In this document: positions 14,356 through 35,980 of the stretch, piece after piece
How the letters are laid out: each line of letters begins with the position of its first letter
Position numbering within the stretch: the first letter of the stretch is position 1
NCBI GenBank assembly: GCA_963796055.1
Contig: CAWCKH010000004.1
Coordinates: 2,368,001 to 2,432,000, forward strand
Reading direction: 5' to 3'
DNA from: an uncultured delta proteobacterium
GTDB lineage: Bacteria; Myxococcota; Myxococcia; Myxococcales; Myxococcaceae
DNA: 64,000 bases
Position numbers and translations under genes: made by a program
The notes under the pieces: generated by a model
Told to the model about the DNA's origin: nothing
Database searches by the model: none
What the model saw: only the letters and a program-made list of their open reading frames with translations

Positions 14356-14552
14356 GGAGCCGGCGGACTTTGCGTCCTGGTGCGATCAGACACATCTGCC
14401 CGGTGCCGGAACCCTGTCCGGTGCGCGACAGAGTATGCGTCTCGAGGCGAGATCGGCTCCGGCAGTCAACACTCCACCTGCCCGGACTGGCAGCAGTGTT
14501 CCCGCTCCGCACCGCCAGACTTGGCGCTCTCGCCAGGGGCTTGCCAGGCGAA

Positions 14553-14849
14553 TTCTCGCGCGGCGGGAAGATCGCCCTCTTCGGGGGAGCCGGCGTCGGG
14601 AAGACGGTGATCGTCATGGAGCTCATCCGGAACATCGGGATCGAACACCGCGGGGTGTCGGTCTTCGGGGGCATCGGAGAGCGAACGCGGGAAGGGAACG
14701 ACCTCTGGCTGGAGACGCAAAGGTCCGGCGTCCTGGAGCGCGCGGTGCTGATCTTCGGCCGGATGAGCGAGCCGCCCGGTGCCCGTTTCCGCGTGGCGCT
14801 CTCCGCGCTGACGATGGCGGAGTACTTTCGTGACGAGCAGAAGCAGGAT
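14553..14849 (+). pseudogene. atpD: Internal fragment of F1 ATP synthase beta subunit
   Basis: [55 protein letters not shown]. About 99 codons only, with no homologous sequence on either side. Confidence 0.9.
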
Positions 14850-15089
14850 CGCGCGGGACCGGGTGCTCGTCGTGACCCCGCGCTGCGCGCCCGCCTCCCG
14901 GGGAACCCGGTCCGCGCTCGGCGGCCCAGGAGACCTGCCGCACCTGGCGGCGGGAGCGCGTCGACTCTCGGGAAGCGATGGCGGGCTATCCCGAACCATG
15001 CGGCCCCTGGGCCTGGCCAAGCCCGGCAGCCAGAGGGAAAGTTCGTGGGGTGAGGGCCTTCCAGTCGCCTCGAAGGGAAGGAGGGAACC

Positions 15090-15437
15090 ATGAAGTTCAC
15101 CCGCTACTCCTTCGGCACGCTCCGTGTCGACGGGGACGAGTACGACCACGACCTCATCATCGACCGCGGCGAGGTCCGGGAGCGGGACAAGCGCCCGTCG
15201 AAGAAATACCGATCGCTCTACGGCCACACGCCGCTGTCGCTCGACGAGGACATCCCCTGGAAGTGCAAGCGCCTGGTGGTCGGGACCGGCGGGGGGGCGT
15301 TGCCGATCATGGACGAGGTCCGCCGCGAGGCGAAACGGCGGCACGTCGAGCTGATCGCCCTACCCACGGAGAAAGCACTCGAGCTGCTCGCCCACGGCTC
15401 CGCCCGGACCAACGCCATCCTCCACCTCACCTGCTAG
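15090..15437 (+). CDS. Mth938/NDUFAF3-like domain protein
   Basis: YSFGTLRVDG.EYDHDLII..LVVGTG..ILHLTC. Confidence 0.85.
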   Translation: MKFTRYSFGTLRVDGDEYDHDLIIDRGEVRERDKRPSKKYRSLYGHTPLSLDEDIPWKCKRLVVGTGGGALPIMDEVRREAKRRHVELIALPTEKALELLAHGSARTNAILHLTC

Positions 15438-15481
15438 GGATGAACGCTCCGGTGCTGACTCCGAGCAGTCACCGACCAGGG

Positions 15482-15940
15482 TCAAATTGCGCCGAGCTGA
15501 AGGAGCAGCTCTCGGTGTAATCGTCGGCGCTCGGAGCTGAGCGGGAGATCGGCGAGGATCAACCGGCGCTGAGCTTCCTCGTTCTCGGCGACCAGTCTCG
15601 CCAGCCGACCCAGCATCCGGGGAAGGTAGGTCGACTTCTCGTGGCAGAGCTGCGCCCAGACCCCCTCGGTCTGCTCCAGAATCCTCTCGCGGTTCCGGCG
15701 AACCCGACCGAGGAACTTCTCGAGCTCCCGGTTGTCCTCGCAGAGCACCAGCAACTTCCAGTCCGCGACCAGATGTCGCTCCAGCCTGACCCGGTACGCC
15801 CCGAACCGCTTCCTGGCCGTCTCGAACGAGCCAGCGGCGGCGAGCGTCCCGACGTCGACCAGGGCGACGCGTAGCTGGTGGTGCTCGGACTCGAGCTGTC
15901 GCCAGATTTGACTCTCGATGGAGGAGTCTGGAGTCCTCAC
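15482..15940 (-). CDS. Hypothetical all-helical protein, hemerythrin-like (degenerate)
   Basis: LESEHHQL..F..Y...LERH pattern resembles hemerythrin helices 1-2, but the later metal ligands are missing. Confidence 0.5.
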   Translation of the reverse strand: MRTPDSSIESQIWRQLESEHHQLRVALVDVGTLAAAGSFETARKRFGAYRVRLERHLVADWKLLVLCEDNRELEKFLGRVRRNRERILEQTEGVWAQLCHEKSTYLPRMLGRLARLVAENEEAQRRLILADLPLSSERRRLHRELLLQLGAI

Positions 15941-15971
15941 CTACGTCGCCACCCTTTCACGAAGGACGTCG

Positions 15972-15987
15972 GGCAAGAACCACGCCA
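15972..15987 (-). promoter_or_regulatory. Putative sigma-54 -24/-12 promoter
   Basis: TGGCGTGGTTCTTGCC (GG-N10-GC), about 32 nt upstream of the 15940 start. Confidence 0.65.
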
Positions 15988-16020
15988 GCTGAAGAAACTA
16001 CCCGTGCGAACCGCGACGGA

Positions 16021-16066
16021 CGGCAGAGCTTGCGCATGCAAGCAGGCGGCGACGCATGTCCTGCGC
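16021..16066. promoter_or_regulatory. Two GCGCA-N5-TGCGC-like palindromes
   Basis: CGGCAGAGCTTGCGC (16021-16035) and ACGCATGTCCTGCGC (16052-16066), between divergent genes. Confidence 0.65.
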
Positions 16067-34363: not shown

Positions 34364-34383
34364 GCTCGCTTCCGTCTCCGATG

Positions 34384-34614
34384 TCAGTCCCCGAGAGACC
34401 ACGGTTCCGTCGTGGGTCCGGTCCTCGGCACCCACGCCCCGTCGCTCTTGACGTAGGAACGCTTCACCGCCGCCCAGGCGATGCGGTGCGACATCGCGTC
34501 CTCGCCCCACCGCTCCCAGGCGTGGTTGAACGCGGCCCGGTAGATGTCCTGAGCATGCTCCGGGAGATGAGCTCGGACCCCGGCCGGGAGATCTTCGTTG
34601 CTGGCATAGGGCAT
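34384..34614 (-). CDS. chaB: ChaB-family protein
   Basis: MPY..DLP..V..LPEHAQDIY.AAFN.AW..HRIAWAAVKR.Y.K. Confidence 0.9.
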   Translation of the reverse strand: MPYASNEDLPAGVRAHLPEHAQDIYRAAFNHAWERWGEDAMSHRIAWAAVKRSYVKSDGAWVPRTGPTTEPWSLGD

Positions 34615-34641
34615 CGGCGCGCCTCCGTGCCGGAGCAAACG

Positions 34642-34719
34642 TGCATCGCGCGAGCCATGCCGATGGCTGGAGACTCCTGCTTCGGCAGCCCGCGTCCGAG
34701 GTGAGCGCATTTCTTGCGC
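34642..34719 (-). promoter_or_regulatory. Putative sigma-54 promoter plus perfect GCGCA-N5-TGCGC site
   Basis: TGGCTCGCGCGATGCA (34657-34642, minus) and GCGCATTTCTTGCGC (34705-34719). Confidence 0.72.
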
Positions 34720-34948
34720 GCATTCCATGCTCCGGCGTTTCCAGCCCCAGCTGGTCTGACCGAGTCTCTCGCTCTCTCCGTGCACGTGAGCGACAAGCGG
34801 AATTGCTGCGATGGCTGTGCCAGAGCTGTCGGATCCATGGCCACGCAATGAAGGACAGGTCATGCGACGGAGCGGGAGGGCAATGGTGCCTCCGGCTTCC
34901 TGATTGCTCATTTGCAACCTCGTCACCGAGCGCGGTCCTCGTCGCAAG

Positions 34949-34964
34949 CGGCACGGCCAGTGCA
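34949..34964 (+). promoter_or_regulatory. Putative sigma-54 promoter
   Basis: CGGCACGGCCAGTGCA, upstream of the ATG at 35016. Confidence 0.6.
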
Positions 34965-35015
34965 GCCCCTCTTCATGCGTCCTCGCGAGCGCAACGCCTG
35001 AACAAGGAGAAGGCC

Positions 35016-35903
35016 ATGCGTCCATTCTTCGAAGGAACCCGGCCCGGGCGCGTCGTCGGTGCTGGCACCGCCGAGTTCGAGCTGCCCGTCCTGTATTTCC
35101 GCGATGACTCGTTTGGTGCCCTGTTCACCGCCGACCTCGCGCGGCTCCGGGCGGCGATGCCGAGCCAGAAGCTGTACCCCGTGCCACATTCCACGCCGGG
35201 TCGCGGGCTGGTCTACATCGGCTGCTACGACTACCTCGACACGAGCGTCGGTCCCTACGGGGAGGTGGCGGTGGCCGTCCCGGCGGTGTACGGGCGGCGT
35301 CCTCCGCCGCTGCTTCCCTCGGTGTTCGAGGGCCGGTGGCCAGGCTTCGGAGCCGTGATCCTGCATTTGCCGGTGACCACCCGCCTGACGCGAGACGGCG
35401 GGCGTGCCTACTGGGGCTACGCCAAGTTCGTCGCCGACATGCGGTTCCAGAGCAACCCCGAGTTCCAGGAGTGCCGTCTGGATGAGGGCGGAAAGCACAT
35501 CCTCACGCTTCGGGTGGTGAAGCGCGGGCCCCCGCTGCCGGACAGACGCCCGCTCATCACCTACTCGGTGAAGGACGGGGCGCTTCTCCGGACCACGATC
35601 CCCCAGTCAACCATCGTCCGCACGGCGCTCGGTACCGGTGGGTCGTCCTTGCAGCTCGGTGACTCCCATCCGGTCGCGTCCTCGATCCACGAGCTGGGGA
35701 TCGATCCCCGTCCAGTGATGACCCGCTCCTACCTCGACCGGAGCGCGATTCTTCCGGAGGGGGAGGTCGTGGAGCAGAGCGTCCGGCCCCTGGAGGGTTA
35801 CCTGGGCGCGGAGAGGGAGGAGGGCGAGTTGCTGACCACGCACTTGCCCACGGCGGTTCCTCCGCCCAGCGCGCCCGAGATGCGCGCGGGAGCGAGCGAC
35901 TGA
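35016..35903 (+). CDS. Acetoacetate decarboxylase-family protein
   Basis: LPVLYFRDD..YDYLDTSVGPYGEV..LHLPVT..GR.YWGYAK. AAGGAG RBS. Confidence 0.8.
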   Translation: MRPFFEGTRPGRVVGAGTAEFELPVLYFRDDSFGALFTADLARLRAAMPSQKLYPVPHSTPGRGLVYIGCYDYLDTSVGPYGEVAVAVPAVYGRRPPPLLPSVFEGRWPGFGAVILHLPVTTRLTRDGGRAYWGYAKFVADMRFQSNPEFQECRLDEGGKHILTLRVVKRGPPLPDRRPLITYSVKDGALLRTTIPQSTIVRTALGTGGSSLQLGDSHPVASSIHELGIDPRPVMTRSYLDRSAILPEGEVVEQSVRPLEGYLGAEREEGELLTTHLPTAVPPPSAPEMRAGASD

Positions 35904-35980
35904 TTGGGGGTGCCGCGCAATGCTCCGCGTGCGTCACGCCTGGCGAGCAGCACACCAGGAGCACAACGATCCGTGACGGC

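Follow-up and report, generated by a model that had tools for sequence, protein, structure and literature searches.

Gene content and boundaries of the island

The window analyzed here is a 64,000-nt stretch of the genome of a soil myxobacterium (G000:C4:2368001-2432000; genome of 5.53 Mb, GC 70.7%), and the subject of this work is a block of approximately 21.4 kb within it (window positions 14540..35970), hereafter the island, that is flanked by two resident genes, one encoding a response regulator and the other a GAF-domain sigma-54 activator. Its promoters carry the operator of the NmpR regulon of Myxococcus xanthus, and the block is predicted to be switched on in trans at low oxygen by the NmpRSTU relay of the host.

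The block is an insertion, because its site is empty in 7 of the 12 congeners compared with the host (labels G001-G012, the host being G000) and its GC3 is 0.84 against 0.92. The empty sites are those of G001, G003, G004, G005, G006, G007, and G012, where the left-flank DNA is 0.2-1.3 kb from the GAF activator on the same contig; in G010 the site is occupied by a 13.8-kb variant that includes a second F1Fo operon in complete form, and in the four remaining congeners (G002, G008, G009, and G011) the two flanks are on separate contigs. Regarding composition, the median GC3 is 0.839 for 23 island genes and 0.923 for the 38 other genes of the window (p = 1e-8), and only 4% of 4302 genome genes have a GC3 ≤0.84; the lower GC (0.676 vs 0.707 for the genome) is a modest deviation, with z = -2.0 and a place in the lowest 3.8% of 1080 windows, while the Markov score is in the lowest 6.6% of the genome windows. 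An empty site in relatives and an atypical composition are traits of a mobile genomic island, and both are present. The original prediction had set the boundaries at 14500..35950, in agreement with the edges defined by synteny (∼14,540 and ∼35,970); the weaker GC3 bias that it had seen by eye is borne out, with the modest GC drop just given, and so is its proposal of a single island.

Domain calls come from Pfam and NCBIfam profile scans of the window open reading frames (ORFs). They recover all the gene families named in the original prediction except the ribonucleotide reductase (RNR) remnant, recognized instead through relatives, and add several that it had overlooked: the atpD remnant, the DUF498, hemerythrin-like, PolX-PHP, L,D-transpeptidase, CdsA, and acetoacetate-decarboxylase-like (ADC) proteins, the ATP-dependent DNA ligase, a Cys-rich protein of 79 amino acids (aa), and two broken CBS genes. 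In total, 21 island genes retain open frames, and the catalytic motifs are kept in the four enzymes that were checked; structured RNA was sought in the island region and none was found.

Starting from the left edge, the first feature is what remains of a second F1Fo ATP synthase operon (14553..14997, +; PF00006/TIGR01039), composed of an internal atpD piece and a downstream piece that are 95% identical to two pieces of the complete G010 operon. It is followed by the DUF498 protein (15090..15437, +; PF04430) and by the hemerythrin-like protein (15482..15940, -), which is a lead only: it has no Pfam match itself, and the name derives from its atlas neighbors with PF01814 (score 0.97; 16% of the top cluster). 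Then come CBS-pair protein 1 (CBS1; 16179..16655, +), a phosphoribosyltransferase (PRTase; 16658..17326, +; PF00156), and an alpha/beta hydrolase (17313..17990, +; PF12146) that is dienelactone-hydrolase-like (DLH), its match to the DLH profile PF01738 being weak and under the cutoff (E 7e-4). On the opposite strand, an M50 site-2 protease fused to a CBS pair (18028..19230, -; PF02163 and PF00571) has the motifs HELSH and NLIPAFPMDG, and next to it is CBS-pair protein 2 (CBS2; 19227..19619, -); CBS1 and CBS2, each with two PF00571 domains, are the two intact CBS-pair genes of the island. The DNA polymerase X with a PHP domain (19988..21742, -) scores 450.8 bits with NF006375 (cutoff 426) and has its motifs.

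As for the hibernation factor (21915..22502, +), it is a protein of ∼20 kDa of the HPFcold type, with an S30AE domain (PF02482; score 35.8 against a Pfam cutoff of 23.7) followed by a cold-shock domain (CSD; PF00313), and it matches over its full length the chain of PDB 9T0Z, an entry of the HPFcold preprint (E 2e-30). Next to it lies the remnant of a class II RNR gene, nrdJ/Z (22554..22697, -), which has no Pfam match; deletions have left two fused pieces of it, corresponding to two separated stretches of the intact NrdJ/Z of G010 (TIGR02504, 526.6 bits, cutoff 400), which occupies the same position between ligase and hibernation factor, and partial copies occur in G006 and G003. The ATP-dependent DNA ligase (22800..24532, -; PF04675, PF01068, and PF04679), once aligned to the intact G010 gene, reveals a 1-base frameshift near 23958, which could be an assembly error, and the loss of its stop codon with the nrdZ deletion.

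The right half begins with the small heat-shock protein Hsp20 (24752..25243, +; PF00011) and the ribose-phosphate pyrophosphokinase Prs (25301..26200, +; TIGR01251, above cutoff). The Cys/His-rich 79-aa protein (26231..26470, -) is 95-97% identical in G006 and G010, and metallothionein-like is an automatic name only. A CBS pseudogene (26545..26816, -), with a deletion of ∼205 bp relative to the intact 157-aa gene of G006, precedes an extra GroEL without groES (27002..28618, +), the third copy in the genome and ∼55% identical to the two resident ones; then come an SH3 and L,D-transpeptidase protein (LDT, YkuD type; 28608..29880, -, start approximate; PF08239 and PF03734), a triple BON-domain protein (30115..30768, +; PF04972 three times), and a second CBS pseudogene (30809..31126, +), with a ∼178-bp deletion at 31048 relative to the intact 165-aa gene of G006. 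The 92-aa membrane protein (31330-31608, +) has no Pfam match, and we take it to be GlsB/YeaQ-like. A chaB-cdsA-archease-rtcB unit follows: ChaB at its head (34384..34614, -; PF06150), a CdsA-like phosphatidate cytidylyltransferase (33545..34363, -, start approximate; PF01148), archease (33127..33540, -; PF01951), and the RNA ligase RtcB (31683..33116, -; PF01139, 546 bits), which has its motifs and whose closest solved relatives are of the Pyrococcus and Thermus types. Finally, the ADC-like protein (35016..35903, +; PF06314) closes the block.

Promoters of the island

Most unit heads are preceded at short distance by a sigma54-like site, and upstream of these sites lies a recurrent palindrome, the published NmpR box, GCGCA-N5-TGCGC. 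In M. xanthus, the bound sites described are all perfect in the core GCA-N5-TGC, and sigma-54 is required (PMC11841059). A composite promoter was defined as an NmpR box placed 25-90 nt upstream of GG-N9-TGC, the latter ending 8-70 nt before the start codon; among unit heads, 9 of the 15 in the island have it, against 24 of the 2915 elsewhere in the genome (Fisher p 4e-15), while 1000 dinucleotide shuffles gave a mean of 0.02 composites and a maximum of 1. Taken separately, the core GCA-N5-TGC lies within 200 nt of 13/15 island heads and 124/2915 elsewhere, with other spacers at 0-5/15; GG-N9-TGC is present at 11/15 island heads, with other spacers at 0-4/15. The island holds 13 core boxes against a mean of 3.7 per window, a count reached by 0 of 1080 genome windows. 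The box is ∼30-75 bp upstream of the -24 element, as in M. xanthus, and at 41 and 70 bp in the primer-matched control.

Three back-to-back pairs are full composites that share a box or a box pair. The first, between the hemerythrin-like gene and CBS1 (15972..16138), has sigma54-like sites at 15972-15987(-) and 16123-16138(+) and paired NmpR-type boxes at 16021-16035 and 16052-16066 (gap 16), and is conserved in G006 and G010. The second, between PolX and HPFcold (21769..21878), has sigma54-like sites at 21769-21784(-) and 21863-21878(+) around one box (21817-21831); its cores are invariant in G003, G006, and two G010 copies, and the spacers vary. The third, between ligase and Hsp20 (24557..24705), has sigma54-like sites at 24557-24572(-) and 24690-24705(+) and a box at 24601-24615; this box and the Hsp20 site are retained in G010. 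Among the single promoters, that of CBS2 (19633..19774, -) combines a sigma54-like site (19633-19648) with a perfect box (19688-19702) and a second one (19760-19774), a composite also found in G003; that of BON (30014..30073, +) has a box at 30014-30028 and a sigma54-like site at 30058-30073, kept in G006; and that of chaB (34642..34732, -) has a sigma54-like site (34642-34657), a perfect box (34705-34719), and an overlapping one (34718-34732), present in G010 and in the rearranged G007. Partial arrangements are found before the 92-aa membrane gene (a box at 31232-31246, +, kept in G006, G010, and a copy on contig C7), before the ADC-like gene (a sigma54-like site from the promoter scan at 34949-34964, +), and between the CBS pseudogene and groEL, where two boxes with 2 and 3 mismatches and a gap of 16 (26916..26961) lack a composite promoter. 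The operon-internal genes PRTase, DLH, and Prs are without boxes. In G003, G006, G007, and G010 the box cores are kept and the spacers have diverged, rearranged gene order included; copies without a composite exist, such as those of CBS1, groEL, and chaB in G003.

Regarding other regulators, the island has 0 matches to the FNR-like TTGA-N6-TCAA, and its one FNR match at 1 mismatch falls within the M50 gene; a loose pattern of the Dev type has 4 single matches, every one of them in coding sequence, the DosR-type regulator family not having been searched. The published M. xanthus nmpR primers match 23 of 208 genomes of the host's family, in support of the name myxobacterium, and in one genome (G193) the paired-box pattern recovers the promoters matching the mxan_3966 and mxan_1578 primers, together with the CBS gene that heads the nmpR operon. 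Applied genome-wide without gene starts, the strict pattern is weak: it exceeds the reversed control by only ∼1.2- to 2.5-fold in four genomes, and G004 shows no excess.

The NmpRSTU relay of the host

In M. xanthus, NmpS is phosphorylated by the heme kinase NmpU until oxygen falls, whereupon NmpS phosphorylates NmpR, and sigma-54 promoters are activated; NmpR-dependent induction in hypoxia is also reported (PMC11841059). The present host encodes nmpR, nmpU, nmpT, and nmpS at C5:203458-207812, plus RpoN. NmpU is a protoglobin kinase matching AfGcHK (5OHE; E 2e-46), found in 12/12 congeners and in 21/30 relatives; NmpR is 68.6% identical to a primer-matched NmpR, with D54 at the same number, and its helix-turn-helix (HTH) region is 71% identical against ≤45% for the other activators of the host, making it the sole close match in the genome. 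At this locus (L036:7721-13763 on C5), nmpR is divergent from nmpU-T-S, with Hsp20 and universal stress protein (USP) genes at the sides; the USP has a paired box ∼420-450 bp upstream.

The 24 background composites include HemN, two oxidoreductases of the POR family, HypF beside a NiFe hydrogenase, a USP, a CBS gene, PFK, and a V/A-ATPase operon; predicted resident NmpR sites, all composite matches, lie at C3:300448, C3:590927, C3:614624, C4:3549955, C4:3564571, and C2:32210. HemN is a validated NmpR target in M. xanthus (PMC11841059), and the composites at HemN, V/A-ATPase, HypF, POR, and PFK suggest that the predicted resident regulon serves microaerobic or fermentative survival metabolism.

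Because the island promoters carry the NmpR box, their activation at low oxygen is likely: we estimate a probability of roughly 0.7 that the island is switched on in trans by the host NmpRSTU relay when oxygen is low and serves survival under that condition. This prediction includes the binding of NmpR to these boxes, its action on the promoters, and a benefit to survival.

Several points weigh against this reading. At the island itself, 6 of the 15 heads are without a composite (DUF498, the CBS3 pseudogene, groEL, LDT, the 92-aa membrane gene, and ADC), and only three regions have paired boxes (with gaps of 16, 16, and, for a weak pair, 13), the remaining promoters having a single box; in M. 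xanthus, each validated promoter has a pair, usually separated by 14-15 bp, the loss of the distal box halved expression, and 5 of 10 predicted promoters were not bound (PMC11841059). The distance windows of the composite were chosen after inspecting the island and one control, and the contrast between island and background is inflated because the island starts were curated by hand and those of the background came from a crude home-made caller. Within the host, its own nmpR and nmpU promoters lack a composite, unlike those of M. xanthus, and 9 of the 20 background matches scanned have no Pfam family, with several others unlinked to oxygen. As for the island as a mobile, low-oxygen unit, no integrase or transposase, tRNA target, or flanking att or direct repeats were found at it, and the Usp domain is absent among the island ORFs scanned. 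Finally, in 18 other myxobacterial genomes (20 archease-neighborhood stretches), blocks of RtcB-archease and of PRTase-DLH-Prs are common and without composites.

Those 20 stretches hold only 2 composites, both at a 2-hydroxyacid dehydrogenase/USP unit, and the homologues in G019, G020, G022, and G024 have 0/6; the predicted NmpR wiring of the island genes is therefore supported for this genus only. Archease itself is patchy, being present in 134 of 304 genomes of the order. The dehydrogenase/USP unit is a candidate NmpR target in its own right: a perfect box (L079:6562-6605 in G174, paired with a gap of 14; L081:5885 in G193) lies between it and a nicotinate phosphoribosyltransferase (NAPRT) gene, ∼14 kb from the archease-DLH-PRTase-Prs block. 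The primers of unbound M. xanthus probes (mxan_7061, 7069, 6199, and 7373, and 0968 forward) have no match to this cluster in G174 and G193.

Part of this evidence would also fit a second explanation, namely, that in this genus the boxes, although genuine operators, answer to a wider signal (stationary phase, energy, or general stress) or to another sigma-54 activator of similar specificity, and that the island is a general-stress kit. The ChaB, BON, Hsp20, PolX, ligase, and RtcB families are also general-stress genes, and the single boxes, the absence of a composite at the host nmpR and nmpU promoters, and the 37 sigma-54 activators matched in the genome by the query with the adjacent GAF activator all lean the same way. 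Yet the box equals a consensus published independently, only the C5 NmpR shares the recognition helix, and the background matches include HemN, POR-family enzymes, and HypF, so that this explanation is considered unlikely.

The adjacent GAF-sigma54 activator

The original prediction had tied the island to a sigma-54 enhancer; the sigma-54 part stands, with sites at 11/15 heads, but the neighboring enhancer is not supported as the regulator. The activator (35981..37531, -), divergent from ahpCD, is resident and belongs to the flank, not the island, because it is present at all 7 empty sites, and it has a GC3 of 0.91. Its adjacency, its NorR-like GAF-AAA-HTH architecture, and the sigma54-like sites within the island made it a plausible driver of the block; set against them are its presence at the empty sites, its own conserved upstream inverted repeats, which have no exact match in the island, the NmpR-type boxes kept by copies of island genes at other loci, and an HTH that the NmpR HTH query does not match. 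This candidate was rejected, and its control of the island is highly improbable.

The region between the activator and ahpC-ahpD (within 35981-38826) has conserved inverted repeats of the CACCGA/CCGGTG type and a conserved ATGATTTG block in 7 genomes, and the GG-N9-TGC site is absent before ahpC. Farther into the same flank, ORF reading points to what are presumably a MoxR/vWA-type cluster (45679-53572) and a type III/flagellar-export-like cluster (55659-63784).

Erosion and lateral exchange

The island is partly eroded and still eroding in this genome: deletions took the ATP synthase operon and the greater part of nrdZ, and they cut into two CBS genes of which G006 has intact versions, so that nrdZ, the second ATP synthase, and the two CBS genes are broken in G000, and perhaps the ligase as well. 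In the contigs of the 4 sequencing runs examined, out of 20, matching pieces are 99-100% alike in X1 and ∼90% in X5, X9, and X16; these runs are from soil and peat, with one lacking a label. A second and more broken partial copy, 87-94% identical, occupies the start of another contig of the host (C7:1-7660), and it has an erythromycin-esterase-family stretch absent from the window copy. In G010, the complete second F1Fo operon (L011:8904-15825) lies within the same-site island; the standard atpD/atpA NCBIfam models pass, the alternate N-ATPase models are missed (TIGR03305/TIGR03324, 560 of 752 and 577 of 750 bits), and the upstream DNA is without a clear composite promoter. In G003, the HPFcold match (L020:5515-5688) is limited to residues 1-57, hence the protein looks truncated.

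The comparison with G006 points to lateral exchange. This congener has an empty site, and yet 19 island genes are found on its other short contigs, in largely the same order, with a 4-fold-site identity to G000 of 0.827. The corresponding values are 0.579 in 24 flank genes and 0.596 in 13 genes of the nmp region, and a silent-site identity as high as that of the island genes would otherwise be hard to explain. The copies of G003 and G007 are more diverged than the core genes (0.50 vs 0.69 and 0.56 vs 0.65), so that an older stock of such blocks exists in the genus, and the pooled value of G010 (0.70 vs 0.73) mixes same-site genes (0.79) with distant copies. The island has thus probably passed from one species of the genus to another, taking along boxes that the host can read.

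Such erosion raises the alternative that the island is decaying cargo in G000, with inherited promoters and no remaining aid to survival. The deletions and the frameshifted ligase, the more broken C7 copy, and the lack of the block at this site in 7/12 congeners agree with it; nonetheless, the 21 open frames and the conserved motifs of the four enzymes, a median amino-acid identity of 90% between the island proteins and those of G006, and boxes that persist across copies with near-saturated silent sites (G003 at 0.50) make it improbable, and control by NmpRSTU for low-oxygen survival is retained as the preferred reading.

Proposed function

According to this reading, a fall in oxygen would turn off heme-bound NmpU and let NmpS phosphorylate NmpR, which would bind the island boxes, often one box or pair between back-to-back promoters, and activate the sigma-54 promoters in trans. 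Among the products, HPFcold would park 70S ribosomes and shield the 3′ end of 16S rRNA, RtcB with archease would religate cut RNA, and PolX-PHP with the ligase would patch DNA breaks; Hsp20 and GroEL would hold and refold proteins. Prs, PRTase, and NrdZ may supply phosphoribosyl pyrophosphate (PRPP) and oxygen-independent dNTPs, the CBS proteins may sense the adenylate charge, and BON, LDT, CdsA, and M50 may remodel the envelope. Together, these products would keep ribosomes, RNA, DNA, and proteins safe while growth is arrested.

Comparison with known systems

The closest regulatory parallel is the M. xanthus NmpR regulon, with 7 promoters and 23 genes that include cbb3 oxidase, HemN, hemerythrin, USP, and CBS; the box and the four-gene relay are the same, as are, by prediction, the dependence on sigma-54 and the CBS and hemerythrin targets (PMC11841059). 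That regulon is scattered, resident, and devoted to oxygen use, whereas the island is acquired, has mostly single boxes, and carries candidate targets for hibernation, RNA/DNA repair, and chaperone functions that do not appear in the parts of PMC11841059 consulted.

In terms of organization, the island resembles the lxa locus of Burkholderia cenocepacia, a single, strain-variable low-oxygen cluster of 50 genes with six USPs and host-like GC, whose deletion lowers anoxic survival and whose authors remark on its overlap with the DosR regulon (PMC3721108). Both are strain-variable clusters with Hsp20, phospholipid-binding/BON-type proteins, a class II RNR, and a motif at many intergenic points (PMC3721108); on the island side all these traits are found, the RNR being intact in relatives only. 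The lxa motif is Fnr/Anr-like (TGA-N6-TCA), unlike the island, where no FNR-type site was found at the promoters and no USP among the ORFs scanned; RtcB/archease, PolX/ligase, and HPFcold are on the island and were not met in the lxa description, as far as the consulted text of PMC3721108 goes. The original prediction knew of no comparable single island; a single low-oxygen locus with DosR overlap is published, namely, this one (PMC3721108).

The same prediction had drawn a parallel to the DosR regulon of Mycobacterium tuberculosis, and the genes that it listed do belong to that regulon. The families do correspond: Hsp20 (HspX), metalloprotease (Rv2625c), CBS (Rv2626c), PRTase (Rv0571c), RtcB (Rv2631), B12 RNR (Rv0570), and ribosome factor (Rv0079) (PMC5309233, PMC3177182, PMC7801807). 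The regulator and the box are different and the regulon has many USPs and nitroreductases (PMC5309233, PMC3177182, PMC7801807), none of the former being found on the island, and it is spread over nine blocks (PMC5309233). The direct protein comparison, made with PDB entries only, gave a weak match of CBS2 to Rv2626c (E 3e-6, rank 51 of 87), whereas CBS1 had no match to Rv2626c at 1e-5; the 37 structure matches of the hibernation factor include no chain under the name RafH, and the published Rv2626c promoter primer was unmatched in the contigs scanned. The parallel is shown at the level of protein families only. Heme-based oxygen sensing also operates upstream of the DosR regulon; Rv2630 is presumably an archease, and we take Rv0571c to have a hydrolase domain.

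Regarding hibernation factors, HPFcold is described as an S30AE plus CSD protein that binds the tRNA cleft of the 30S subunit and the anti-Shine-Dalgarno sequence (bioRxiv 10.1101/2025.11.08.686982); the island factor has the same two domains and, by analogy, may bind the ribosome likewise. Stress operons of Balon place hibernation factors next to Hsp20, OsmY, and RtcB (PMC10901736); no Balon is on the island, and a baeRF12 gene is in another low-GC cluster of the host (L035:9700-13550 on C2), which comprises baeRF12/host-attachment protein, Hsp20, triple BON, and DUF308. NmpR regulation was not met in the consulted parts of the HPFcold and Balon descriptions (bioRxiv 10.1101/2025.11.08.686982, PMC10901736), and in the literature searched, mostly outside subscription journals, no account was found in which NmpR controls an island or genes of this sort. 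Upstream of 79 distant HPFcold loci, FNR-like sites number 9, sigma54-like 15, and NmpR-like 1; of 51 long loci surrounding distant relatives of HPFcold, 7 have at least 5 of the queried families, which makes the kit cross-phylum, and a Burkholderia plasmid has CBS-PRTase beside NAPRT.

In conclusion, the island would work like lxa and the DosR regulon and belongs to neither; the most fitting place for it is the NmpR regulon, as a predicted extension that has been exchanged laterally, and the predicted NmpR wiring of an exchanged hibernation and repair kit is what is new. More tentatively, and at somewhat less than even odds, NmpRSTU may be the myxobacterial counterpart of DosRST, controlling respiration along with a spore-independent dormancy program (HPFcold hibernation, repair by RtcB and PolX/ligase, chaperones, a spare ATP synthase, and a B12 RNR, all taken jointly) that circulates among soil species as an island prefitted with NmpR boxes, with FNR or different sigma-54 activators in charge of the kit in other phyla. 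The island also offers a clean case of one survival kit under different oxygen sensors: mycobacteria use DosR, Burkholderia has an Fnr-like motif, and NmpR with sigma-54 is predicted here. The proposal puts a name to a testable switch for the stress island of an abundant group of soil and peat myxobacteria and, if true, would add ribosome hibernation and nucleic-acid repair to an NmpR regulon devoted to oxygen use.

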